Source: an uncultured Alphaproteobacteria bacterium (GTDB lineage: Bacteria > Pseudomonadota > Alphaproteobacteria > SP197). Taken from it: DNA of 64,000 nt. The stretch lies in NCBI GenBank assembly GCA_958295695.1, contig OY282363.1:1738225-1802224 (forward strand), given 5' to 3'. The position numbers and the translations under genes were made by a program. Each line of letters opens with the position of its first letter. Position 1 is the first letter of the stretch. The notes under the pieces are model-generated. The model saw only the letters and a program-made list of their open reading frames with translations. It was not told the DNA's origin and searched no databases. This document shows, piece after piece, positions 2,789 to 23,086 of this stretch.

Positions 2789-3866
2789 CGGCCTCGCTCC
2801 GGCGCATCCTGTCGATCAACCGGGCGTAGAATCCGAGGTTGTGGCGCGTGGCCAGCCGCTCCGCCGCCGCATCGCCGATCTTGAAGAGATGATGAAGGTA
2901 GGCGCGCGAGGGGCCTTCGGGATCGAGGGACGGGTCTAGGGCCGACCGGTCTCGCGAGTGCCGTTCATGCTCCATGTAGAGAACATCATAAGATTTATTA
3001 TTTTTCAATATATTATCACTATTATCTAATGTAATATATAAACGCTTGCGACGAGCGTTGCGAGTGGGCAGGGCGCAGTCGAACAGACGGTAGCCGGCCC
3101 GCCAGGCCGCGAGCATGTTTTCCGGCTTTCCGATGCCGAGCGCATGCTTGGGGGCGTCCGCGGGCAGCAGGTCCGCGGTCATGGCGACCATGTCCGTCAG
3201 CAGGCCGTCGTCGCCGATGGGCCAGCCGCCGAAGCCGAAACCGTCGAAACCCATGCCGGCGAGCTCGCCGGCGCAACGTCTGCGCAGGTCGGGATCGGCG
3301 CCGCCCTGGACGACCGCGAAGAGCAGGGGGCGCCCGGCGGCGGCGGCGCCCGGTTCGCAGCCGGCCCGGGCGACGAATTCGTCGCGGCAGCGCCGCGCCC
3401 AGTCGAGCGTCCGTTCGATCCCGGCCCGCTGCGCCTCGGCGGGATCGTTGGGGTGGGTGCACTGGTCGAGGCAGAACAGGATGTCGGCGTCGAGATCGAG
3501 CTGGCGCCGGATACACTTCTCGGGCGTGAGGAGGCGCTTCCTGGCGCCCTTTTCGTGCCGGTAGACGAAGCCCCTGTCGGTCACGCTGCCGAGGCCCGCG
3601 CCGGACGCGGCCATCGACCACGCCTGGAAGCCTCCGGAATCGGACGCGGCGATGCCGTTCCAGCCCATGAAGCGGTGGACGCCGCCCACGGCCTTCACGG
3701 TCGAGGCGCCCGGCCGCGTGGCGAGATGCAGGCTGTTCACCATCAGCGCCTCGACGCCGCATTCGGCGAGGTCGCGGGAATCGAGACCCTTCACGACCGC
3801 GCGCGTGCCGTCGGGCAGGAACGCCGGCAGGCGGAGCGGGCCGCGGCGGGTGCCGAGGACCTTCAC
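2781..3866 (-). CDS. tRNA-guanine transglycosylase (Tgt) paralogue lacking the zinc-site cysteines
   Basis: 361 aa. Tgt catalytic motifs are present (SDSGGFQ; LDQCT; GIGKPENM; FDCALPTRNARRKR; SRAYLHHL...RHNLGFY). The CxCxxC zinc site is replaced by LDPSLDPEGPS. The gene contains a 71-bp AT-rich in-frame segment (2974..3044). Its 4-bp start overlaps the rsmI stop. Confidence 0.8.
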   Translation of the reverse strand: MKVLGTRRGPLRLPAFLPDGTRAVVKGLDSRDLAECGVEALMVNSLHLATRPGASTVKAVGGVHRFMGWNGIAASDSGGFQAWSMAASGAGLGSVTDRGFVYRHEKGARKRLLTPEKCIRRQLDLDADILFCLDQCTHPNDPAEAQRAGIERTLDWARRCRDEFVARAGCEPGAAAAGRPLLFAVVQGGADPDLRRRCAGELAGMGFDGFGFGGWPIGDDGLLTDMVAMTADLLPADAPKHALGIGKPENMLAAWRAGYRLFDCALPTRNARRKRLYITLDNSDNILKNNKSYDVLYMEHERHSRDRSALDPSLDPEGPSRAYLHHLFKIGDAAAERLATRHNLGFYARLIDRMRRSEADG

Positions 3867-4632: not shown

Positions 4633-6729
4633 TTGTCGAGCATGGCGGGTTCGAAGGAGACCCTCGCGGCCCTGGTGGCGCCGCGGCGCATCGCGGTGGT
4701 CGGCGCCACCCCACGCGAGGGCGCGGTGGGCAACCGGGTGATCCGGCATGTCGCCGGGCCGCGCTTCGCCGGCGGCGTCGTCGCGGTCAACCCGGGCTAC
4801 GGCGAGGTGCTCGGCCGCACTTGCCACCCTTCGCTGGAAGCGCTTCCCGACGCCGCCGATTGCGCGGTCATGTGCGTCGGCGACAACCGCGTCGAGGCGG
4901 CCGTCGAGGACGCCGCGCGCGCCGGCGTCAAGGCGGTCGTCCTGCTCGGCCGCCTCTACGATCCGGGCCACGGCGGCCCCACGCTCCCGGAGCGTGTCGC
5001 GGGCCTCTGCCGGGAGGCCGGCATGGCCGCCTGCGGGGCGAACTGCATGGGTGTGTTCAACACCATCGACGATGTGTGCCTGGCCATGAGCCACCTGCCC
5101 GGGCTGGACCGGCCCGGGCGCATCGGCCTGCTGTCCCACAGCGGCTCGACCTGGTCGGGGCTGGGCGGAAATCACCGGCCGTTGCGTTTCGGGATCGGCG
5201 TCTCGATGGGCAACGAGCTCGTGACGGGCCTGGCGGACTATCTCGAGTTCCTCGTCGAACGTCCCGAAACCTCCGCCATCGGTCTCGTGCTGGAGACGGT
5301 GCGCGACGGCGACCGTTTCGTCGCCGCCGCGGAGGCGGCGGACAGGGCCGGCGTCCCCCTCGTCGCCCTGAAACTCGGCAAGACCGAGAAGGCGCGCGGG
5401 TTCGCGCTCTCCCACAGCGGCGCCCTGGCGGGCGACGAGCGGGTCTACGACGCCGTGTTCCGCCGCCGCAACGTCATCGGCGTCGACACGCTCGACGAGA
5501 TGGCGGATACGCTGGAGGCGATGGCCTGCGGCCGCGCGCCCACGGCCGACACGGTTGGAATCCAGACAGATTCCGGCGGCGAGCGGCAGCTCATCGCCGA
5601 TCTCGCCGAGCGCAACAAGGTGCCGCTCGCTGTCTTCGGCGAGGCCACCCGGGCGGCGCTGGCCGGGGTGCTCGATCCGGGCCTGGAGCCCGACAACCCC
5701 GTGGATTACTGGGGCGAGGGAGGTCTTCCCGTCGCGCCCAGGGTCATGGACGCGATCGCGCGGGCGCCGGAGGTCGGGGTCGTGGTCTTCTCCACCAACA
5801 TGGTGTCGGGCCGTGCGCTGCTCAACGCCTCGACCGCCGCGCTCGAGGACGCCCACCGGGCGACGGACAAGCCCTGCATGATGCTGGCGAACATCTCCGA
5901 CGCCGTCGACGCCGGGGAGGCCGCGCGCCTCCGCGACGCGGGAATCCCCGTCCTTTCGGGCACCGAGACCGGTCTCAGGGCGATCGGCCATCTGATCGGA
6001 TGGCACGCGCGCCGGAGAGAGAGCGGAGAGCGCGGCGGCGCGGTCGAACCACCGGATTCCGGGATCGTGGCGTACTGGCGTCGGCGGCTCGAGGACCGCG
6101 CGCCGGCGCCGGAGGAGGCGATCGCCATGGTCGCCGATTTCGGCGTGCCGGCGCCCGAGACCGCGGTGTGCGCGGACGAGCGGGACGCGGTCGCCGCGGC
6201 GGAACGCATCGGATTCCCGGTCGTGCTGAAGACGGCGGACCCTTCGATCCCGCACAAGACCGACGTGGGCGGCGTTGTTCTGGATATCGGGACCGATGAC
6301 GAGCTTCGCGCGGCCTACCGGGCCATGGCCGGCGCGCTCGGATCCCGCGTCCTGATCCAGCCGATGGTCTCCCCAGGTGTCGAGATGCTCGTCGGGATGA
6401 CGTCGGATCCGACCTTCGGGCCGGTCATGACCCTGGCGACGGGCGGTGTCCTGACGGAGGTGCTGGACGACGCGGTGGCGGCGGCGCCGCCGGTGTCGCC
6501 CGGCGAGGCCGCCGATCTGGTCGCCGGCCTCAAGGGTTCGGTCCTGCTCGATGGCGTGCGCGGCGCGCGGCCGGCGGACCGCGACGCGCTGGCCCGGGCC
6601 GTGTCGCGCCTCTCGGCGATGGCGGTGGCGCTCGGCGACCTGATCGGCGCGTTCGACGTCAATCCCCTGATCGTCCACGAGCGGGGCGTGACCGCCGTCG
6701 ACGCGCTGGTGACGCCGCGGGGACCGTGA
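4633..6729 (+). CDS. Acyl-CoA synthetase (NDP-forming), CoA-binding + ATP-grasp domains (acetate--CoA ligase [ADP-forming]-like)
   Basis: 698 aa. N-terminal CoA-binding Rossmann fold (RRIAVVGATPREGAVG), a succinyl-CoA-synthetase-like middle, and a C-terminal ATP-grasp (FPVVLKTADPSIPHKTDVGGVVLDI). Confidence 0.85.
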   Translation: MSSMAGSKETLAALVAPRRIAVVGATPREGAVGNRVIRHVAGPRFAGGVVAVNPGYGEVLGRTCHPSLEALPDAADCAVMCVGDNRVEAAVEDAARAGVKAVVLLGRLYDPGHGGPTLPERVAGLCREAGMAACGANCMGVFNTIDDVCLAMSHLPGLDRPGRIGLLSHSGSTWSGLGGNHRPLRFGIGVSMGNELVTGLADYLEFLVERPETSAIGLVLETVRDGDRFVAAAEAADRAGVPLVALKLGKTEKARGFALSHSGALAGDERVYDAVFRRRNVIGVDTLDEMADTLEAMACGRAPTADTVGIQTDSGGERQLIADLAERNKVPLAVFGEATRAALAGVLDPGLEPDNPVDYWGEGGLPVAPRVMDAIARAPEVGVVVFSTNMVSGRALLNASTAALEDAHRATDKPCMMLANISDAVDAGEAARLRDAGIPVLSGTETGLRAIGHLIGWHARRRESGERGGAVEPPDSGIVAYWRRRLEDRAPAPEEAIAMVADFGVPAPETAVCADERDAVAAAERIGFPVVLKTADPSIPHKTDVGGVVLDIGTDDELRAAYRAMAGALGSRVLIQPMVSPGVEMLVGMTSDPTFGPVMTLATGGVLTEVLDDAVAAAPPVSPGEAADLVAGLKGSVLLDGVRGARPADRDALARAVSRLSAMAVALGDLIGAFDVNPLIVHERGVTAVDALVTPRGP

Positions 6730-6868
6730 GTGTCCGGTGGCGCGGCCCATGCAGATTTCGCATGGATGGGGCGACGAAATCCCGCTACCGCGCGGGCCGG
6801 CGGAAAACTATCTCGCCCCTCGACGGCCCCGGACGAAGGCGGGCCTTTTGCCGGCGAGGAACAAGGCC

Positions 6869-7197: not shown

Positions 7198-8358
7198 ATG
7201 AATCCGACCGAGATGTACGGCCCGCTCCCGGGCGGGTTGCACGACGATCCGCGCCGATCCTACACGATGGCCTCGCGCTACTACACCGACCCCGCGGTTC
7301 TCGACGCGGAGATGGACAGGATCTTCGCGCGTTCGTGGCTCTTCGTGGGTCACGAAAGCCGGATCGCCGAACCGGGAAGCTACAGGACGGTCACGGTCGC
7401 CGACGAGAGCCTGGCGCTGGTCCGCGGCCGCGACGGCGAGCTCCGCTGCTTCTACAACGTGTGCCAGCATCGCGCGCACCGCATCCTGACCGGCGAGGGC
7501 GCGCTCAAGCTCACCATGGTGTGCCCCTACCACGGCTGGGCCTACAACCTGGACGGCACACTGAGGACGGCGCGCGGGTGCGAGAACGTCGAGAACTTCG
7601 ACAAGAGCGAATTCGGCCTCGAGCAGGTGCGTGTGGAAACCATGCTGGGTCTGATCTTCGTCAACCTCGACCCCGGCGCGCGGCCGTTCCGCGAACAATA
7701 TGCCGGACTGGAGGAGGACATCCTGCGCTGGATGCCGCGCGCCGACGGGCTCGGCTTCGCCCGCGCGCGGGATTTCACGATCGAGGCCAACTGGAAGGTC
7801 GTGATCGACAACTTCCAGGAATGCTACCACTGCGAGCCGGCGCATCCGGCCTTCGTCGATATGGTGGCGATGCCGACCTACCGCAACAGGACGCACCGGT
7901 TCTGGTCGGCCCAGACCTCGGACAAGCCGAGTTCCAGGAACAGTTCCGCCTACGCCTTCGAGACCGGTGACGTGGATTTCGGCTATGCGGGCTACTTCGT
8001 CTGGCCGAACCTGACGATCTGGCTGATGCCGGGCGAGCCGAACCTCATGACCCTGCAGATGCTGCCGGACGGTCCGGAACGTTGCGTCGAACACCTGCAT
8101 TGGCATTCGCTGGGCGGCGAACTGACCGGGCAGGCCGTGTCCGCCATCGACTATGTCGTCGATGTTCTGCAACCCGAGGACATCTCGATTTGCGAAAGCG
8201 TCCACCTGGGCCTGAAGTCGCGCGGCTACGACCGGGGCCGCTTCATCGTCGACCGCGACCGGAGCCACATCAGCGAGCACGGCGTCCACCACTTCCACAT
8301 GCTGGTGATGCAGGCGCTGGAGGGCGGACCGTCCCCGGCGACACAGGCCGCGGAGTAG
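7198..8358 (+). CDS. Rieske (2Fe-2S) aromatic-ring-hydroxylating oxygenase, alpha subunit
   Basis: Rieske motif CQHRAH...CPYHGW. A non-haem Fe catalytic domain follows. Start at MNPTEMYG, downstream of the spurious N-terminal extension. Confidence 0.85.
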   Translation: MNPTEMYGPLPGGLHDDPRRSYTMASRYYTDPAVLDAEMDRIFARSWLFVGHESRIAEPGSYRTVTVADESLALVRGRDGELRCFYNVCQHRAHRILTGEGALKLTMVCPYHGWAYNLDGTLRTARGCENVENFDKSEFGLEQVRVETMLGLIFVNLDPGARPFREQYAGLEEDILRWMPRADGLGFARARDFTIEANWKVVIDNFQECYHCEPAHPAFVDMVAMPTYRNRTHRFWSAQTSDKPSSRNSSAYAFETGDVDFGYAGYFVWPNLTIWLMPGEPNLMTLQMLPDGPERCVEHLHWHSLGGELTGQAVSAIDYVVDVLQPEDISICESVHLGLKSRGYDRGRFIVDRDRSHISEHGVHHFHMLVMQALEGGPSPATQAAE

Positions 8359-8397
8359 GGGACGCGGGCGGTCCGTCCCGTCCCGGAGGATGGAGGC

Positions 8398-9006
8398 ATG
8401 ACCGCGACCGCCGACTTCTACTACTCCCCGGGAAGCCGCTACTCGTATCTGGCGGCGACCCGGATCGCCCGCATCGAGCGCGGCGCCGGCGCCGTCTTCA
8501 ACTGGTTGCCGCTCCAGAGCAGCCGGCTGATCGGACGCGGCGGCAAGGACCCGTTCGCCGGCGAACCCCTGTCGGGCCAGTACGACTGGGACTTCCGGCG
8601 CCGGGACGCGGAGGCTTGGGCGGCCTACTACGGGGTCCCGTTCCGCGAGAGCCACGGCCGGCTTTCCTTCGACGAGGAGCTGATCGCCCGCGCGGCGCTG
8701 GCGGCCAGGAAGCAGGACGCCGTGGTCGCCATGAGCCTCCGCCTCTTCGCGATGGTTTACGAGGACGACCGGACCGCGTTGGACGCCGACGACTACATCG
8801 CTGCGGCGGAGGCCCTCGGGCTGGATGGGGCGCGCTACGCCCGGGATCTCATGAGCCGGGAGCTCGGGGGCGAGAACACGGCGTCGATCGGGGAGGCCGC
8901 CCGCCGCGGCGCGTTCGGCGTGCCGACCTTCTTCGTGGGCGAACGCATGTTCTGGGGCAACGACCGGCTGCCGCTCGTCGAGGCGGCGTTGCGGGGAGAT
9001 ATTTGA
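8398..9006 (+). CDS. 2-hydroxychromene-2-carboxylate isomerase / DsbA-like thioredoxin-fold protein
   Basis: 202 aa. DsbA/HCCA-isomerase family pattern (DFYYSPGSRYSYLA...GVPTFFVGERMFWGNDRL). Confidence 0.75.
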   Translation: MTATADFYYSPGSRYSYLAATRIARIERGAGAVFNWLPLQSSRLIGRGGKDPFAGEPLSGQYDWDFRRRDAEAWAAYYGVPFRESHGRLSFDEELIARAALAARKQDAVVAMSLRLFAMVYEDDRTALDADDYIAAAEALGLDGARYARDLMSRELGGENTASIGEAARRGAFGVPTFFVGERMFWGNDRLPLVEAALRGDI

Positions 9007-16699: not shown

Positions 16700-17616
16700 T
16701 GCGCGGCGGCCCCGACCGTCATGTCGCGGCGAAGCCGGTCGAGCAGCAGGGCCGCCTCGGTCCCCTTCACGCGCTCGATGTCGTCCTGGTACTTCAGCAG
16801 CACGCCCAGCGTATCGTCGACGATCGCGGGATCGAGCGTCATCGCGTCGAGGTGGACCAGGGCCCGCGCCCAGTCGAGGGTTTCCGCGACGCCCGGCAGC
16901 TTGAAGAGGTCCTTCGCGCGCAGGGCCTGGACGAAGGCCACGACTTCCGATGAAAGCCGCTCGGCGCAGTCCGGCGCCTTGCGCCGCAAGATCTCGAGTT
17001 CCCGTTCGGCGGTGGGATAGTCGACCCAGTGGTAGAGGCAGCGGCGCTTGAGCGCGTCGTGGATTTCACGTGTCCGGTTCGACGTGATGACGACGACCGG
17101 CGGCTCGGCCGCCTCGATGGTGCCGAGTTCGGGAATCGTCACCTGAAAGTCGGACAGCACCTCGAGAAGGTAGGCCTCGAACGGCTCGTCGGTCCGGTCC
17201 AGTTCGTCGATGAGCAGGACCGGGGGGCCGGACTCGTGGGGCTGGAGCGCCTCGAGGATCGGCCGCTTGAGGAGAAAGTCGTTGCTGTAGATGTCGTCCG
17301 CGACGCCCTGGCGGTCGACCGCTCCGCCGGCCTCGGCGAGCCTTATCTCGATCATCTGGCGGGGGTAGTTCCACTCGTAGACGGCGTGCGCGATGTCGAG
17401 GCCTTCGTAGCATTGGAGCCGGATCAGATCGCGCCCGAGCGCCGTGGCCAGGACCTTGGCGGTCTCGGTCTTGCCGACGCCGGCCTCGCCTTCCAGGAAC
17501 AGGGGCCGGGTCATGGTCAGCGCCAGATAGATCGTGCTCGCCAGGCTGCGGTCCGCGATGTAGTCGGCGGATTCGAGCAGGGCCGCGGTGCGGTCGATGG
17601 AACGGGGGAGGGGCAT
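16696..17616 (-). CDS. coxD: MoxR-family AAA+ ATPase, CoxD-like
   Basis: 306 aa. Walker A (LEGEAGVGKT) and Walker B (VLLIDELDR). Its start overlaps the coxE start region by 4 bp. Confidence 0.85.
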   Translation of the reverse strand: MPLPRSIDRTAALLESADYIADRSLASTIYLALTMTRPLFLEGEAGVGKTETAKVLATALGRDLIRLQCYEGLDIAHAVYEWNYPRQMIEIRLAEAGGAVDRQGVADDIYSNDFLLKRPILEALQPHESGPPVLLIDELDRTDEPFEAYLLEVLSDFQVTIPELGTIEAAEPPVVVITSNRTREIHDALKRRCLYHWVDYPTAERELEILRRKAPDCAERLSSEVVAFVQALRAKDLFKLPGVAETLDWARALVHLDAMTLDPAIVDDTLGVLLKYQDDIERVKGTEAALLLDRLRRDMTVGAAAQ

Positions 17617-17649
17617 GAGCCGCCAAGGCCGGAAGCGCCGGGAAGACGG

Positions 17650-18000
17650 CTATTTTTGCACCCAGTCGCCGCTTGCGTCCATGTAGTAGCCGCCGGCGGG
17701 CAGGCTCTGGATGATTTTCTCGCCGGCCACGATCTCGACCGCCCGAAGCGACGCGCCGTTCTTGTCGGCCGGCTCTTCGTATCTGGCGCGGCGCCGCCCG
17801 TTGACGTCGGCCATCGGATCGAGCGCCCAGCCGGGCGCCGAGGGGTCGCGCGGGGCGAGGTAGCCGTCGGGGCGTTCGCCGAGATAACCCGAGGCGCGCG
17901 CCTCGCCGAGGCTCTGCGCCCGGGCCGCGCCGGCGGACGCCAGCATCGCGCCGGCCGCGATGGCGAGGAAGGAACGGCGCGGGAGATCAGAACGACTCAT
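17650..18000 (-). CDS. ydbL: YdbL-like periplasmic protein (DUF1318)
   Basis: Signal peptide, then a GYLGE...GYLA motif and a C-terminal GDWVQK, matching the E. coli YdbL pattern. Positioned after the ynbE-like gene. Confidence 0.6.
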   Translation of the reverse strand: MSRSDLPRRSFLAIAAGAMLASAGAARAQSLGEARASGYLGERPDGYLAPRDPSAPGWALDPMADVNGRRRARYEEPADKNGASLRAVEIVAGEKIIQSLPAGGYYMDASGDWVQK

Positions 18001-18190
18001 CGTCGTCCTCCAGGAGATCTTCGATGTCCTTCTCCAGCTTCACGCGAACCTCCCGCTCGATCTTGACGTTGAGATCGATCACGATCGGGTCCTTGGGCGC
18101 CTCGACGCGAACGGTCGGCTGGAAGGCCGCCATGAACAGCGCGACCAACGCCGCTTGATACGTGGGAAGGGTTCTTCGAGAGGACCGCAT
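17987..18190 (-). CDS. ynbE: YnbE-like small lipoprotein
   Basis: 67 aa. VRVEAPKDPIVIDLNVKIEREVRVKLEKDIEDLL closely resembles E. coli YnbE (EVAAPKEPITINMNVKIEHEIHIKVDKDVEALL). Confidence 0.7.
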   Translation of the reverse strand: MRSSRRTLPTYQAALVALFMAAFQPTVRVEAPKDPIVIDLNVKIEREVRVKLEKDIEDLLEDDDESF

Positions 18191-18230
18191 GACATCGTCC
18201 GTTCGCGGATGGCGACCCTGGAACGCGATC

Positions 18231-18251
18231 GGAATTTCCTAGTTTAGGGTC
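18231..18251. repeat. IS left terminal inverted repeat
   Basis: ggaatttcctagtttagggtc is the exact reverse complement of 19909..19929. Confidence 0.8.
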
Positions 18252-18448
18252 TTTATATCTGGGCGGTTGACTCTGCGCCGCCAAGGATTCCAAGCTCCCT
18301 CCATCGCCAAACCAACCATGGGACGCCCCTGCGTCGGGCTGCCCGTGAATACAAGACCGTGCGAGCGGGAATCAGCGGGGACCCTGAAACCCATGGTTGT
18401 TTGGCGACCGGCCCGGCACTCCCGCCGGCCGGAACGCTGGAGCGAGTC

Positions 18449-19075
18449 ATGAAGCGGATGATGATTGCGGCCCTCGCGGCACTGCTGAGCGGCGCGGCCT
18501 CGGCTGAGGACTACGAGGAGATGCGTCCCAAGGACAGCAAGCTGCGCCTCGGCGTCCTCGGGGAAGAAGCGGAGGGCTCGTGGTTTCTGGAGGAAAAGAA
18601 ATCGTTTGGGACGTTCCGCTGCGACTACGGTTATTGGGGCTTCGACGACGATCAGCGGAGCAGGGTCAAGGCCCAATACTGCTGGTCGGACAACGTCTCC
18701 TCTTGGGACGACAGTGGCGGCTACACTGGCGAGGAGGCCGACACGGACGAGTTCCTGGAATGGAACGATGAGACACGCCTTGCCGACAGCAGGGACAACG
18801 CCGAGGAAGGCCCTACCATCGAAACCGTCGTCGGAGATGTTGTCGTACACGCCTTCGACGTGGAGAAGGACACGTCTTGGAAGACCTACAGGGAGTGCAT
18901 GGGGTTTCACATGGTCTGGGGCAAGGGGTACGGCGTATCGCGCAAACTCTACGCCAAGTCGCTGACCTTCTACGCCTGCGACAACGCCACCAGCACCATG
19001 TCGGAGGCCAAGCTCCTCCGCATTCTGTCCAGCTTCAGCATCGAAGGTGAGTTCGACGCGCTGGTAGAGAACTAG
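18449..19075 (+). CDS. Secreted hypothetical protein (signal peptide; acidic, Trp/Cys-containing) carried as IS passenger
   Basis: Start at MKRMMIAALAALLSGAASA (signal peptide) inside ORF 18359..19075. Local GC (~60%) is lower than the window average. It lies inside the IS boundaries. Confidence 0.5.
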   Translation: MKRMMIAALAALLSGAASAEDYEEMRPKDSKLRLGVLGEEAEGSWFLEEKKSFGTFRCDYGYWGFDDDQRSRVKAQYCWSDNVSSWDDSGGYTGEEADTDEFLEWNDETRLADSRDNAEEGPTIETVVGDVVVHAFDVEKDTSWKTYRECMGFHMVWGKGYGVSRKLYAKSLTFYACDNATSTMSEAKLLRILSSFSIEGEFDALVEN

Positions 19076-19078
19076 CCG

Positions 19079-19833
19079 TCAGTCTTCCAGCGCGAGCGGA
19101 ATGGTCTTGTTCAGCTTGGGGAAGGCGCGGTTGAGGTCGCCCTTGAAGCGGTTCCAGTTGGGGGCCGCCCGCATGAGCGCCATGACAGCCGCCGAGTGCT
19201 GGTTGAGCTTGACGTGGCCGGGGTCCGGCGTGAACCATTGATGGTGCGTCGTGCGCCGCCGTCCTGTCGGCAGTGTCGGATTGATCCGCTTCAACTCATC
19301 CAGGACGCCGGGCGCCAAGCGTTCGTAGACGAGATCGTTGGTGTAGTGGCCGATGACGGCGGGGCGCTTGTGGCCGTCCGGGCCGGGCCGTCGCCCTTCG
19401 TGCCCTTGCGAGGCTTGCCACCGATAAAGGTCTCGTCCATCTCGACGATGCCGGCCAGAAGCAACCGGTGCTCGGCTTGGGTCATGGCCCGCTTGATCTG
19501 CATGGCGATCCGCCAGGCCGTGTTCTTGTTCACGTCGAGATCGCGGGAAAGCTGGAGCGCCGACAGGCCCTTCTTGGCGTTCAGCATAAGCATGATCGCC
19601 AGAAACCACTTCTGGAGCGGCAGGTGCGTGCGGTGGAAGATCGTCCCGACCGTCACGCTGAACGAGGTCTTGCAGTCGTAGCAGCGATGGCGGCGGCGTG
19701 CGTCGTTGCTGGGAGCGGTGTTGGCCGACCCGCAATAGGGGCACTTCGGCTCGCCCTTCCACCGTGCCGCCTCAAGATGAGCGACGCAGGATTCTTGGTC
19801 GGGAAACCACTCGAAAATCTGTATGATGTTCAT
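19079..19833 (-). pseudogene. IS1595-family transposase, interrupted by a frameshift near 19385
   Basis: The N-terminal part (ORF 19291..19908 from MNIIQIFEWFPDQESCVAHL...CPYCGS...CYDCKTSFSVTVGTIFHRTHLPLQKWFLAI) and the C-terminal DDE part (ORF 19079..19762) are in different frames. The switch is at a ggcccggcccgg repeat. Confidence 0.7.
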
Positions 19834-19908
19834 CGGCAATCCGTCCTTTCGTGGCGCGTTCGATCCGGTGACAGGATGAACATGACCCCCGATTGGGCGG
19901 ATTATCAA

Positions 19909-19929
19909 GACCCTAAACTAGGAAATTCC
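19909..19929. repeat. IS right terminal inverted repeat
   Basis: gaccctaaactaggaaattcc is the exact reverse complement of 18231..18251. It is flanked by the aacgcgat target duplication. Confidence 0.8.
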
Positions 19930-19942
19930 AAACGCGATTGTG

Positions 19943-22900
19943 TCAGAAAACGGACAGGCGTTCTCGGATTTCTTCCGGGAGGCGCCACGCGCCGAGGCCG
20001 TGGAGCAGGATCTCGTCGAGGTCGCCGGCGAGGTTGACGTTGAGTTCGATCGGATAGCCGTCATGAAAGCCCGGATTGGCCCCGGCGATATGGACGCCGA
20101 GTTCCGCCGCGCCGCCCGCCGCGCGGTCGATGTCGATCGCCAGGGCGCTGAACCGGAAGTCCGACAGGACATCGAGCACTTGTTCCATGTTCTCGTCCAT
20201 CGGGCCGAAGGGCGCTGGCCGTCCGTCCGGAATGTAGCGCAGCAGCCCGGCGGAATCGGCGTCGAGCCGGCCGTGCGCGATGACGATGTCGCCGCCCGTC
20301 ATTCGGACGGGAATGGAGCCCGTCAGTCTCGCGTCGGTCTCGATCCATGGAACGTCGAGGTCGTCCAGCAGCGTCGCGAGGTCGACGCCCTGGATGTCGA
20401 GCAGCGCCTCGTTGCCGTCCGGCGCGAGGCGGAGGACCGAGGGGCGGGCCGCGATGCGCCCGCCGGCGAGCCCGGCGGACGCGGCGTCGACGCGCAGGCT
20501 GCCGTCGCCGGGGAGCGCGAGGGTGACCGCGAGGTCGGTCAGGGGAAGGCCGGCATCGAGCCTTTCGGCCGCGAGCGTCTGTTTCGGCGGGGTCGAGAGC
20601 GGATCGACGTTGGAGAACGTCACCTCGCCTTCGAGGCCCTCGATGGCGACGCCGCCGTTCCGGCCTGACAGGCCGAGAAGGGAGAGCGTGAGGTCCGATG
20701 ACGCGACGCCGTCGTCGATCGCGATCTTCCCATGGAGCTCGACGGCGCCGGAGACCTCCTCCAGAAGGCCGCCATAGAGCGGAGACACCTCGTTCGGCTG
20801 GCTCCCGCCGGGCTCGAACCGGATCGGCGGGACGCGGATCAGCGCGCGAAACAGGTCGTCCGACGGCCGGTAGCTCGACTCCACGTTGGCGAGGAAGCGC
20901 CGGTCGCCCATGTGGAGAGTGCCGTTGAAGCGGACATCGTCGCCCAACGGCCAGACCGGCATGACCGCAACGTCGGCGGCCAGCGGCGCGAAACGGGCGG
21001 GTTCGCGGAGGTCTTCGATGACCCGGATGTCGGCGGTGGCCTGCGGCCAATCCGACAGGCCGTTGTTGTACGTGAAGAGGAGCCGGATATCGGCCAGACG
21101 GAGGTCGGGTCCCTCGACGAGGATGTCGCCGCCCTCGGTTTCGACCGTCCCCTGGAGGTGATGGCGGCCCAGGCTGCCGAACCGGACGCCCATCGACGGC
21201 AGAGTTCCGTCGACAGCCGCGATCGTCCCGCCGTCCTCGATCACGTCGAAACGCACTCCGGCCGGGCCGGTCAGCAGGCGCGCGTCCCAACTCCAGTCCT
21301 CGCCGAAGCGTTCCAGGACCAGCAACGGCAGCAGCTCGGCCTCGAGCTTCACGGAGGTCGCGCGATGCGAGCGGAGACGCGGATGCCGGAGGGTCCGGAT
21401 GTCGATCCAGGCGGTGTCGGCTAGGCGGACGTTGAGGCCGTTGTCCACCAGTTCGAAGTCGAGCGGCAGCTCGGCCAGGACCCCCGTGGCGGCCGTATCG
21501 AGGACGGTCACCGTGTCGGCTTGAAAGAGCGCGACGGGGTCGGCCTCCGCGCGCGTCGCCCCGTCCGCATGGCCGATTCTCAGCGGGAGGTCGAGGACGA
21601 TGGCGGTAGCGTCAGCGCCGGCGGCCGAGAGCGTGTCGAGCCTGGCCCGCAGGCTCGCCGCGCCGTCGAACGCGGCGGGCGCGCCCGCGATACCGCCGGC
21701 GACGCGGATGGCGCCCGTCGCGCTCCGGGGCGCGAGCGCGCCCGAGGCGGCGAACTCGAGCGCGGAAACATCGAAGGCGGCCAGCGCGCCATCGGGAGTC
21801 AGCTCCGCGTCGCCGCGGATGGAAAGCCGGCCGTCGAGGTCCCCGCCGCTCCTCAAGGAAGCGTCCAGGGCCGCCGCGATGGCGATCGACTCGCCCGAGA
21901 CGGTCGCGTCGGCGACGATCCCCTCCGGTGGAAGCGTCAGGTCGAACGGACGGTCGAGAGCCGCCGCGACGATCCCGCCCGCCGCCTCGGGCGGAGGCAG
22001 GCGCGCGCCCAGGATCGCCCCGCCCGGCCGCGCGGTCAGGCGCAGACGCCGCCCGTCCGCGGCGATGTCGAATGACAGCGCCGAGGCCTCGACGGAAAAC
22101 CGGTCGGACAGGGACATGGCCCCGGTCTCCAGGTCGATCCGGCCCGTCAGGGCGATGGCGTGGAGGTCGAGCGGCCGGTCGGGTGGAACGAAGGCCTCGA
22201 ACGAGACGTCCAGGCTCGCGGGGCCATGCAGATCGAGCGAATCGACCATGGGCGGGGTCATGGAGTCGCGAACGGCGAACGCGCCCGTCGCGGCGACGCG
22301 GAGCCGATCCCCGGCCATGCCGGAGACGATCGAGACGGCGGCCGAGAGCGGCGCCTCCTCGACGCCGAAACCGATGTCGGCGACGAACGAGCGGCCGTCC
22401 CACGACCCTTCGGCGGTCAGGCCGCCGAGGTCCGGGCCGCCCGCGGCGACCTCGGCCTCGGCGAGCGAAACGACGACCCTGTCGCGGCCCGAGACGGGGT
22501 CGGGTTCGAGGGACAGGACGCCGGACACGTGGCCGAACGCGCCGTCCACGCGCCATCGGCCGGAGCCCGAGACCGATGCGCCGGTCGATTCCAGGGCGGC
22601 GTCGAGCCGTGCGCGGATCGTGTCGAGCGGATGGACAAGGGCGATCTCGGCGTCCTCGATGACGAGGGCCGCGAAGGGGAGCGGTTCGCGGAGCCCGTTT
22701 CCGTCATCGCGCCGGTTCAGCAATCCGGCCAGAGGAGACGCCGGGACGCCGTCCCCGTCGAAACGGATCGCGAGATCGACGCCGGCGAGGCGCACCGATT
22801 CGACCCGCCCGTCGAGAAGCCGCCACGGACGAAAGGACAGTTCGACGCGGCCGACCGCGCCGGCCCCGGGAACGGAGACGCCGGTCAGCACCATGCGGCC

Positions 22901-23086
22901 GGTTTCGACCTCGGTCACGGTGTAGGCGGCGCCGGCCAGGGGCGTCCCGGAGATCCCGAGGCGCACCAGCCGGTCCGCGATCTCGTGGCGCGCGGCGAAC
23001 CAGACCGCCGCGACCGCGACCGCCGCGGCGACCGCCAGGATCGAAAGACGGCGGATCGGCCCCGGGAGAGGGCGGAGGAAGAACAC
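19943..23086 (-). CDS. ydbH: YdbH-like AsmA-family protein (DUF940, intermembrane transport-like)
   Basis: 1047 aa with a single N-terminal TM helix, a long repetitive Ala/Gly/Asp-rich body and a YdbH-type C-terminus. It lies upstream of the ynbE-ydbL pair, matching the ydbH-ynbE-ydbL operon organisation of E. coli. Confidence 0.6.
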   Translation of the reverse strand: MFFLRPLPGPIRRLSILAVAAAVAVAAVWFAARHEIADRLVRLGISGTPLAGAAYTVTEVETGRMVLTGVSVPGAGAVGRVELSFRPWRLLDGRVESVRLAGVDLAIRFDGDGVPASPLAGLLNRRDDGNGLREPLPFAALVIEDAEIALVHPLDTIRARLDAALESTGASVSGSGRWRVDGAFGHVSGVLSLEPDPVSGRDRVVVSLAEAEVAAGGPDLGGLTAEGSWDGRSFVADIGFGVEEAPLSAAVSIVSGMAGDRLRVAATGAFAVRDSMTPPMVDSLDLHGPASLDVSFEAFVPPDRPLDLHAIALTGRIDLETGAMSLSDRFSVEASALSFDIAADGRRLRLTARPGGAILGARLPPPEAAGGIVAAALDRPFDLTLPPEGIVADATVSGESIAIAAALDASLRSGGDLDGRLSIRGDAELTPDGALAAFDVSALEFAASGALAPRSATGAIRVAGGIAGAPAAFDGAASLRARLDTLSAAGADATAIVLDLPLRIGHADGATRAEADPVALFQADTVTVLDTAATGVLAELPLDFELVDNGLNVRLADTAWIDIRTLRHPRLRSHRATSVKLEAELLPLLVLERFGEDWSWDARLLTGPAGVRFDVIEDGGTIAAVDGTLPSMGVRFGSLGRHHLQGTVETEGGDILVEGPDLRLADIRLLFTYNNGLSDWPQATADIRVIEDLREPARFAPLAADVAVMPVWPLGDDVRFNGTLHMGDRRFLANVESSYRPSDDLFRALIRVPPIRFEPGGSQPNEVSPLYGGLLEEVSGAVELHGKIAIDDGVASSDLTLSLLGLSGRNGGVAIEGLEGEVTFSNVDPLSTPPKQTLAAERLDAGLPLTDLAVTLALPGDGSLRVDAASAGLAGGRIAARPSVLRLAPDGNEALLDIQGVDLATLLDDLDVPWIETDARLTGSIPVRMTGGDIVIAHGRLDADSAGLLRYIPDGRPAPFGPMDENMEQVLDVLSDFRFSALAIDIDRAAGGAAELGVHIAGANPGFHDGYPIELNVNLAGDLDEILLHGLGAWRLPEEIRERLSVF

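Follow-up and report, generated by a model that had tools for sequence, protein, structure and literature searches.

A probable non-autonomous, internally deleted derivative of an IS1595-family transporter-type insertion sequence in the ydbH–ynbE spacer

Results

The 1,701-bp element at positions 18230–19930 of the window (by which we mean the whole 64-kb stretch of DNA that was analysed) is very probably a non-autonomous, internally deleted derivative of an IS1595-family transporter-type insertion sequence (IS), which derivative would have lost ~1.03 kb in a deletion mediated by the heptamer GGCCCGG and is inserted in the spacer between ydbH and ynbE. This reading, drawn from comparison with related sequences, differs from that of the original prediction, where the element had been taken as intact-ended and its transposase gene as broken by a single frameshift that might be a sequencing error.

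Positions 19383–19833 (minus strand) hold the 5' remnant of an IS1595-family transposase gene (tnp), which still encodes the zinc ribbon, the HTH, and, at VEMDET, the first of the catalytic Asp residues; its ORF then stays open in the wrong frame as far as the stop at 19291. Look-ups by exact sequence of the 180-aa product and of the cargo protein returned no record. The zinc ribbon (PF12760, Zn_Tnp_IS1595) was recognized at residues 11–56 (E 6e-11; 42.5 bits, the cut-off being 25.4), and NCBIfam NF033547 (transpos_IS1595) matched with 83.9 bits, above its cut-off of 75, as an N-terminal fragment only (positions 1–85 of 215); this zinc-ribbon/HTH N-terminus and the NCBIfam match, along with an 8-bp target duplication, bear out the family affiliation originally proposed. 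Among 3,791 transposase homologues the best full-length ones are 72–83% identical and carry both PF12760 and PF12762, while P0003, the full-length transposase that comes closest, has in its N-terminal 140 aa 88% identity to the remnant and carries PF12762 (DDE_Tnp_IS1595) with an E-value of 4e-33. That C-terminal DDE domain is absent in all frames between 18230 and 19930, and a tblastn search with the DDE half of P0003 gave no match anywhere in the window. The complete transposase of its own that characterizes an autonomous IS is missing from the window copy, which finding supports the suspected immobility of the element; as judged from its gene content, the copy is a remnant derived from the IS1595 family, and not a functional member.

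In another frame than that of the transposase remnant, positions 19079–19389 (minus strand) carry the 3' remnant of a P63C-domain gene, consisting of its last ~100 codons and the stop. The Pfam P63C domain (PF10546) is incomplete, with positions 35–93 of 93 present (E 1e-14); the remnant is 62% identical by tblastn to the P63C C-terminus of locus L009, and its DNA is colinear with L009 6504–6812 and L005 2509–2823. Colinearity with full-length elements holds on the other side of the gap as well (L005 954–1513 and L009 4931–5486; likewise L001 on both sides), with ~1.03 kb missing in the window copy, from tnp codon ~150 to P63C codon ~195. Alignment and codon-level comparison place the junction at 19383–19389 (minus strand), in the 7-nt microhomology GGCCCGG: the window matches tnp up to GGCGAC and thereafter the P63C gene tGGCCCGGCCCGGACGGCCACAAGCG, the resulting junction string being AAGGGCGACGGCCCGGCCCGGACGGCCAC. 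Because the heptamers are out of register—GGC CCG Gac in tnp (codon phase 0), tGG CCC GGc in the P63C gene (phase 1)—the deletion by itself explains the change of frame, without a separate frameshift mutation. A two-step route, in which the 11-nt GGCCCGGACGG was the site of an in-frame crossover and the 5 bp GGCCC were then duplicated, may be considered as well. No parent copy with exactly the same cargo and leader was found and, since the closest full-length tnp is only 83–88% identical, the deletion was deduced from relatives that are ~80% identical in DNA. As a separate matter, a remote homology between tnp and P63C at the two junction sites was considered and rejected (BLASTP E of at least 2; hhalign probability 0.2%), there being microhomologies only.

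Both remnant ORFs are free of internal stops, a state that fits a recent deletion, yet leaves room for a function having been kept. In one rival reading, which we consider improbable, the two remnants are joined, either by a -1 ribosomal frameshift or because a 1-nt assembly error hides a true in-frame sequence, so that the DNA-binding domain of the transposase and the C-terminus of P63C form a chimera of ~250 aa that would act as a regulator or an inhibitor at the ends. Proteins uniting Zn_ribbon_IS1595 and P63C in frame do exist—P0002 (282 aa), the 94%-identical P0134, P0152 (464 aa), and a set of 445–473 aa—and the absence of stops agrees with a join; the window junction, however, is unique among 100 loci and more than 7,000 homologues, contains no slippery heptamer of the X XXY YYZ type, and retains none of the N-terminal beta-rich domain, of which all the other fusions keep at least a part. 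Furthermore, in the window translation the invariant Leu255 of the consensus is replaced by Ser, and Pro249, conserved in at least 90%, by Val.

That a complete IS1595 transposase was broken by one frameshift or sequencing indel at ggcccggcccgg, with the zinc-ribbon/HTH and the DDE domains in two frames and hence correctable, is very hard to sustain. A change of frame is indeed present at ggcccggcccgg (window 19378–19389, minus strand), as had been claimed, and both frames are open for more than 100 codons; but the downstream frame is that of P63C, not of the DDE domain, the NF033547 match goes no further than model position 85, a tblastn search with the DDE half of P0003 found no counterpart, and the gene spans ~750 nt as against the ~900 nt needed for tnp alone in the relatives. 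Because no DDE sequence is left in any frame, correcting the "frameshift" cannot restore the transposase, so that the rescue once envisaged, in which a sequencing error at the repeat would account for the break, is impossible.

As to the ends, the 64-kb window contains exactly two copies of the 22-mer GGAATTTCCTAGTTTAGGGTCT, at 18231–18252 (plus strand) and 19908–19929 (minus strand), where shuffled sequences lead one to expect 0 copies, and by eye the perfect match extends to 23 bp (18231–18253 and 19907–19929); the perfect inverted repeats (IRs) of the original prediction are real, though of 23 instead of 21 bp. Because every relative starts with C-GGAATTTCC and finishes with GGAAATTCC-G, we set the true ends at 18230 and 19930. 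The cargo-proximal IR (18230–18253, plus strand) consists of the terminal C present in all related elements and the 23 bp that match the other end perfectly, whereas the transposase-proximal IR (19907–19930, minus strand) has, on the plus strand, an A at 19930 where the family has a G; the terminal IRs expected of the IS1595 family are present with this one terminal mismatch, and the description of the element as intact-ended holds inasmuch as both ends are there, but not for that base. The element ends read CGGAATT, which motif presumably fits the CGGnnTT ends of the ISNha5 group in the ISfinder family table. Upon re-examination, the 8-bp target duplication aacgcgat proved exact, with its left copy at 18222–18229 and its right copy at 19931–19938; perfect 8-bp duplications occur in the relatives L009, L014, and L073 too. 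The G+C content is 0.60–0.66 within the element and 0.68–0.74 in the flanks. That the IRs and the duplication were fortuitous and the region an ancestral part of the operon, a proposal with nothing in its favor beyond its a priori possibility, is scarcely credible in the face of a 22-mer present twice instead of the expected 0 times, the same ends flanking tnp-plus-P63C elements in unrelated genomes, the lower G+C inside the element, and the uninterrupted 31–41-nt spacer of relatives, colinear with the reconstructed empty site.

The spacer into which the element is inserted measures 43 nt; 4 nt separate the ydbH stop (19943–19945, minus strand) from the right copy of the duplication, and 31 nt the ynbE ATG (at 18190, minus strand) from the left one. 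Upstream in the interrupted operon, ydbH (19943–23086, minus strand; 1,047 aa; Pfam YdbH-like, E 5e-57), keeps its native stop, and its C-terminus aligns with the L090 and L091 orthologues; ynbE (17987–18190, minus strand; 67 aa; Pfam Lipoprotein_19, YnbE-like lipoprotein) is now 1.75 kb from ydbH; and ydbL (17650–18000, minus strand; 116 aa; Pfam DUF1318, E 5e-22) has its closest homologue, 84% identical, in P0122, which lies in a syntenic uninterrupted operon. These Pfam matches on both sides confirm that the insertion lies between ydbH and ynbE and splits the operon. Empty-site alleles, which it had been suggested to look for, are present in the closest relatives L090, L091, and L092, where ydbH, a spacer of 31–41 nt, and ynbE are colinear with the window minus 1,709 bp; they lend support to the view that the insertion into this spacer is relatively recent and, together with the 8-bp duplication, show that it took place by DDE transposition. 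In the window ynbE a Phe stands in place of the lipobox Cys (codon 18122–18124), giving AAFQPTV versus AACQPTV in L090 and TACQPTV in L091 and L092. A promoter and terminator scan of positions 17600–20300 revealed no consensus sites, for which reason no statement on polarity rests on that scan.

The full-length relatives have the order IR-tnp-P63C gene-(cargo)-IR. In all 31 of the 31 loci where tnp has at least 60% identity to P0003 and the sequence extends far enough downstream, the P63C gene is directly 3' of tnp, ORF maps of L005, L001, and L009 place it immediately after tnp, and the pairing reaches down to ~40% tnp identity (L060). The parental tnp encodes a zinc ribbon-HTH-DDE protein of ~295 aa, and the P63C gene, the start of which overlaps the tnp stop, one of ~295 aa that matches PF10546 (E 7e-29) and phrog_2384 (E 1e-93). 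The two-gene form without cargo measures ~1.9 kb (complete in L013, L015, L024, L025, and L027) and the forms with cargo 2.3–2.9 kb, elements of this clade having CGGAATTTCCTAGTTTAGGGTCTTGA-type ends and 8-bp target duplications. The P63C protein gave no PDB match by profile or by fold; in BFVD its best structural match was Mx8 p63, the others being weak and Bro-N/antirepressor-like. Within the same clade further deletion derivatives were observed, namely the independent fusions P0002/P0134 (with the junction between GII and ALVDEATGY) and P0152, and the IR pairs of ~0.5 kb in L028. Stand-alone zinc-ribbon/HTH-P63C fusions of 445–473 aa make up a divergent set (P0136, P0142, P0191, P0221, and P0177), for which stable fusions a search for flanking inverted repeats was negative. 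In the plasmid collection, a DNA search with the whole element produced no match and a protein search with the full-length tnp nothing above 42% identity, the best named relative, ISPepr2-like, being less than 42% identical; consequently, no named IS can be assigned. None of the plasmid P63C genes examined adjoins an IS1595 transposase.

Inside the IRs, and convergent with the transposase remnant, the ORF at 18449–19075 (plus strand) corresponds to the proposed passenger gene, whose presence is thereby upheld. Its product is predicted to be a secreted protein of 208 aa, with a signal-peptide-like N-terminus. No Pfam, NCBIfam, or PHROG entry matched this protein; its homologues form 40 representative clusters of ~200 aa, in which Cys residues are conserved and the C-terminus bears the motif ..SIEGEFxALVE. 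The AF2 model (pLDDT 83, pTM 0.81) is beta-rich, and its fold had no significant match in the PDB. A tie of the cargo family to the IS type or to the leader was considered and rejected, since the homologues in L099 and L100 have neither IRs nor leader.

Discussion

The deletion on which our interpretation is centered would have arisen by illegitimate recombination between two GGCCCGG copies out of register with each other, one at tnp codon ~150 and the other at codon ~195 of the P63C gene, and would have cost the element the whole DDE core past the first Asp as well as all but the C-terminal third of the P63C gene; as the heptamers are in different codon phases, an out-of-frame junction would result in one step. 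The remains would comprise a DNA-binding stub of 150 aa that runs out into a nonsense tail, a P63C tail that is silent, the convergent cargo gene behind its leader, and both ends. Ordinary DDE transposition carried the element into the ydbH–ynbE spacer, and the deletion might have occurred either before that insertion, in which circumstance an intact copy located elsewhere in the genome would have mobilized the derivative in trans, or else in situ. From the sequence one would predict that the element is unable to move by itself now; the stub, for its part, could bind the ends and be inhibitory.

Overall, the element is an ordinary defective transporter-IS. Passenger genes occur in the IS1595 family in its "transporter IS" (tIS) forms, according to Siguier, Gagnevin & Chandler (2009) as cited in PMC11891212, and the window element likewise bears between its ends a gene unrelated to transposition, that of the 208-aa secreted protein. 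It shares with the family the N-terminal Zn_ribbon_IS1595 plus HTH, the terminal IRs, the 8-bp duplication, and a passenger gene inside the ends, but is without the DDE core. With the defective or MITE-like derivatives of DDE transposons it has in common the possession of both ends and the duplication, the want of a working transposase, and a deletion between short direct repeats; unlike those derivatives, it retains an apparently intact cargo gene and the 150-aa DNA-binding stub, and no second copy of it came to light, the genome being covered over 64 kb. The ~0.5-kb IR pairs in L028 are also MITE-like in appearance, are without matching 8-bp duplications there, and are not taken as a proof of trans-mobilization. 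The appropriate annotation is accordingly that of a defective, non-autonomous IS1595-family remnant with cargo, and not that of a "repairable" frameshifted transposase pseudogene; a frame change at a repeat within a transposase gene can be the scar of a deletion.

The conserved pairing of tnp and P63C is the sole mildly novel aspect of these results. The features of the IS1595 family as summarized in PMC8101967 comprise a single transposase gene, whereas the parent clade has that second, translationally coupled P63C gene in 31 of 31 loci. This second gene encodes a full-length member of the group of the Myxococcus phage Mx8 p63/P63C proteins (PF10546; phrog_2384), of which only the last third is left in the window. 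We put forward tentatively, as a possibility that is rather less than likely, that the Bro-N/antirepressor-like P63C might be no passenger but an accessory factor that transposition, or the control of it, cannot do without, with the clade constituting a distinct two-gene branch of IS1595. The invariant pairing, the overlap of start and stop, and the repeated independent zinc-ribbon/HTH-P63C fusions, including the stable 445–473-aa family without IS ends, are all compatible with that proposal. An IS1595 clade that always has a P63C second gene may merit experimental study.

In E. coli, ydbH, ynbE, and ydbL form one operon, and the function of YdbH in an intermembrane lipid bridge needs YnbE (PMC11126948); in the window, ydbH is now 1.75 kb away from the other two genes of that single operon. 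Expression of ynbE and ydbL would presently depend on read-through of 1.7 kb that includes convergent transcription of the cargo. Because ynbE is also without its lipidation cysteine, the lineage may have abandoned the YdbH–YnbE bridge.

The cargo gene is preceded by a structured leader (18296–18425, plus strand) with an outer stem at 18305–18322/18390–18406 and a sub-threshold Rfam match at 18333–18425. The model concerned, sRNA-Xcc1 (RF02221), is aligned over its full length with 31.5 bits (E 0.0057), the gathering score of 53 not being reached; a copy of the leader in L005 scored 30.4 bits, likewise below 53. The sRNA known as sRNA-Xcc1 occurs on plasmids and phages as well as on integron cassettes and transposons (PMC2996969; Chen et al., 2011, cited in PMC12189769; for APSE phages, bioRxiv 10.1101/2020.03.17.996009). 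The leader resembles it in the full model length, the AAUACAA loop motif, the enclosing stem, and the location upstream of an ORF on a mobile element, but with that score it is no curated member, and two copies only were found here, those of the window and of L005. These are 80% identical (L005 3060–3183) despite their different downstream ORFs, the fold has a z-score of -5.0, and two compensatory pair changes distinguish the outer stems of the two copies.

Transposase Remnant and the Architecture of Its Parents

The minus-strand ORF starting at 19833 in the window matched the IS1595 zinc ribbon of Pfam (PF12760, E 6e-11), and scored 83.9 bits with the NCBIfam IS1595 transposase model—the cut-off being 75—with a coverage of only model positions 1–85 of 215. 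What is retained of the transposase gene (tnp) thus encodes the zinc ribbon and HTH together with only the first of the catalytic residues, the Asp of VEMDET. The original prediction had placed the DDE domain in a second frame, beyond a frameshift; the frame opening after the ggcccggcccgg repeat (19378–19389), however, corresponds instead to the Pfam domain P63C (PF10546; positions 35–93 of 93, E 1e-14), and a tblastn search of the 64-kb window, in which the query was the DDE half of its nearest full-length relative, gave no match.

Related elements were gathered by an exact-match scan for the terminal inverted repeats (IRs) in 185,579 species genomes, which yielded seven loci, as well as by a protein search and a metagenome scan, the last providing 80 loci. 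In L005 (from a Paracoccaceae MAG), L001 (from an Alphaproteobacteria MAG), and L009, the order is IR, tnp, P63C-domain gene, variable cargo, and IR: tnp encodes about 295–300 aa with PF12760 and PF12762, the P63C-domain gene encodes about 292–303 aa, and the start of the latter overlaps the stop of the former by 1–4 nt, an overlap that is frequent across the tnp+P63C clade. The P63C gene directly follows tnp in 31/31 of the loci having room downstream and a tnp at least 60% identical to the full-length transposase P0003; tnp together with a full-length P63C gene was found at L001, L005, L009, L010, L013–L015, L017, L018, L020–L025, L027, L030–L036, L039, L040, L042, L060, and L073. The two-gene form without cargo measures about 1.9 kb (L013, L015, L024, L025, L027), and the cargo-bearing forms 2.3–2.9 kb (L001, L009, L014, L035, L040). 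Among IS1595 transposases less than 55% identical the P63C gene is mostly missing, the exception being L060, which has it despite a tnp identity of just 40%.

The full-length P63C protein, as modeled for P0135 (pLDDT 79), has a beta-rich N-terminal domain and a helical C-terminal half. No counterpart was found in the PDB by either sequence or fold; in a viral structure library the model matched Mx8 p63 (E 8e-8), with weak further matches to proteins of the Bro-N/antirepressor type. The protein also matched phrog_2384, of unknown function, and weakly the anti-repressor Ant. The plasmid-borne P63C genes inspected displayed no linkage to IS1595 transposases.

Deletion Junction

The window element is colinear with L009 at 4931–5486 of that locus (81% DNA identity) and again at 6504–6812, and both L005 and L001 align to it in like manner; about 1.03 kb of the relatives' sequence is missing. 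The join reads AAG GGC GAC GGC CCG GCC CGG ACG GCC ACA AGC. At the matching site the tnp of L009 reads AAG GGC GAC GGC CCG GAC GGC, and the P63C-gene parent reads TGG CCC GGC CCG GAC GGC CAC AAG CGC (W P G P D G H K R), the latter sequence being the window's own second frame, in which cGG stands where the relatives have the Trp codon TGG. The peptide W P G P D/Y G is the same in the relatives, with the codon differences being synonymous, and the ggcccggcccgg repeat itself is native P63C sequence. The alignment places the crossover inside the heptamer GGCCCGG, which starts at codon position 1 in tnp and is present in the P63C gene as two overlapping copies 5 nt apart, the copy used starting at codon position 2. 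Since the heptamers occupy different codon positions, the join would fall out of frame in one step. A two-step route, consisting in an in-frame crossover and a subsequent 5-bp duplication, is less parsimonious than this single event; by either route the DDE core is gone, so that no indel correction can restore the transposase, contrary to the earlier supposition that the element might not be immobilised if the frameshift were a sequencing error. At the level of sequence, then, the loss of the catalytic domain through a microhomology deletion is clear. From the 64 kb in view, that deletion may have taken place either before the arrival of the element, with help in trans, or in place.

We infer that this copy is unable to move by itself. 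Truncated transposases of other IS families bind element ends, and the DNA-binding stub of 150 aa could by analogy do so here.

Other Deletion Derivatives and Fusions

In P0002 (282 aa; L008 70–918) and P0134 (94% identical), the N-terminus of tnp is joined to P63C at GII|ALVDEATGY; the database contains near-identical candidates, P0146 (tnp, 93%) and P0135 (P63C, 96%), which are likely the parents of that fusion. In P0152 (464 aa), tnp is joined just after GRGKR to the whole P63C protein. Each fusion thus goes back to a deletion of its own within the tnp+P63C clade, with a junction other than that in the window. The two junction sites fall on short local similarities between the tnp and P63C genes; homology between the two proteins was considered and rejected (BLASTP E at least 2, hhalign probability 0.2%). 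Five divergent single proteins of 445–473 aa (P0136, P0142, P0191, P0221, P0177) combine an IS1595-type zinc ribbon/HTH with a whole P63C protein and have no DDE domain. Their genes—those for P0221 and P0136 being at L094 5001–6395 and L095/L096 5001–6338—have chromosomal surroundings, adjoining selB or near an R-M system, with no flanking IRs detected around them, and the products could be domesticated fusions.

Element Ends and Family Placement

The 22-mer GGAATTTCCTAGTTTAGGGTCT occurs twice in the window, at 18231–18252 (+) and 19908–19929 (-), with 0 occurrences expected from 100 shuffles, and by eye the two ends agree perfectly over 23 bp; the perfect repeats previously described are thus present, though longer than the 21 bp proposed. 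The 8-bp target duplication aacgcgat, upon re-examination, was exact outside both IRs (18222–18229 and 19931–19938). All the related elements begin with C and end with G, as 5'-CGGAATTTCC ... GGAAATTCCG-3', and with those ends the 8-bp duplications are perfect in L009, L014, and L073 and 7/8 in L001; the window element therefore occupies 18230–19930 (1,701 bp). At the transposase-proximal terminus, base 19930, the window has A in place of the G seen in every one of the 12+ related elements (T in place of C when read on the strand of the element); this end is therefore one terminal nucleotide off the family consensus, and the change at that cleaved position alone may impair transposition. The G+C content is 0.60–0.66 within the element and 0.68–0.74 outside. 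The CGGnnTT ends would fit the ISNha5 group.

At L005 the IR of the cargo-side end (3190–3260) is degenerate, reading TTATTTTAGGGTCTTGAG and lacking the terminal CGGAATTTCC, and at about 3471 another IS1595-like gene begins that is unrelated to the first; the L005 element, too, is probably immobile. At L028, two segments of about 0.5 kb (5643–6160 and 7941–8451) lie between the IRs of the tnp+P63C clade, with C...G termini and no tnp coding capacity, a truncated tnp adjoining one of them; these segments are MITE-like in appearance, but they have no matching 8-bp duplications there.

Where PMC8101967 cites Siguier et al. (2009), the IS1595 family is characterized by 8-bp duplications and a single transposase gene, whose product has a Zn_Tnp_IS1595 N-terminus and a DDE_Tnp_IS1595 C-terminus; the passenger-carrying forms are termed tIS in PMC11891212. 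The family assignment holds for the ends, the duplication, and the zinc-ribbon N-terminus, but not for the missing DDE domain, so that the window element is a family-derived remnant; the original observation was real and its interpretation partly wrong. The tnp+P63C clade differs from the single-gene description in its constant second gene, and may already be in ISfinder. A defective tIS copy is in itself an ordinary object.

Cargo Gene and Probable Leader

The passenger gene predicted inside the element is an ORF of 208 aa at 18449–19075 (+), with a signal-peptide-like N-terminus, and is convergent with the P63C remnant. The protein had no match in Pfam, NCBIfam, or PHROG. Together with its homologues it forms a small family of proteins of about 200 aa (40 representative clusters), in which cysteines are conserved and the C-terminus carries the motif SIEGEFxALVE; because homologues are present outside the tnp+P63C IS type, it is a true passenger. 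The model is confident and beta-rich (pLDDT 83, pTM 0.81), with no significant neighbor among PDB folds.

The sequence separating the left IR from the cargo ATG includes a conserved, structured region of about 130 nt (18296–18425, +), 80% identical to L005 3054–3183 (-), the ORFs downstream being unrelated. The fold has a long enclosing stem (z = -5.0), in which two compensatory pair changes distinguish the window and L005 copies. The full-length matches to Rfam sRNA-Xcc1 (31.5 bits for the window, 30.4 for L005) are below the gathering score of 53, so that the region is not a curated member of that family, whose known carriers include phages and plasmids as well as transposons and integron cassettes (PMC2996969, PMC12189769, bioRxiv 10.1101/2020.03.17.996009). 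This region is probably an expression leader or an sRNA module of the cargo end.

Insertion Site

The flanking genes are all on the minus strand: ydbH (23086..19943; Pfam YdbH-like, E 5e-57), ynbE (18190..17987; Pfam YnbE-like lipoprotein family), and ydbL (18000..17650; Pfam DUF1318). The insertion between ydbH and ynbE was borne out, with the distances corrected to 4 nt from the ydbH stop (19943–19945) to the right duplication copy and 31 nt from the ynbE ATG to the left one. Upon removal of the element and one duplication copy (1,709 bp), the reconstructed spacer measures 43 nt. The closest relative found, L090, whose YdbL (P0122) is 84% identical, has the same synteny and an uninterrupted spacer of 41 nt, while that spacer is 31 nt in L091 and L092. 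Sequence comparison thus supplied the empty-site alleles, and since the reconstructed site is colinear with all three (3/3), the insertion and its position are confirmed: the element entered, by an 8-bp-duplicating mechanism, an intergenic spacer in which the relatives have no insertion. Expression of ynbE-ydbL would now depend either on a 1.7-kb read-through, opposed by transcription of the convergent cargo gene, or on a promoter that the element itself supplies; a consensus promoter/terminator scan of 17600–20300 found neither signal and was uninformative.

The YnbE of the window reads ...FMAAFQPTVRVE, where the orthologues of L090, L091, and L092 read ...AACQPTV or ...TACQPTV. The invariant lipobox (+1) Cys is replaced by Phe (codon TTC at 18122–18124, -) through a single G-to-T change, which might alternatively be a sequencing error, and the protein contains no Cys anywhere. 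In E. coli, YnbE is an OM lipoprotein needed for YdbH function (PMC11126948). The loss of the lipobox Cys, along with the IS upstream of ynbE, suggests that the YdbH-YnbE bridge is decaying in the window lineage.
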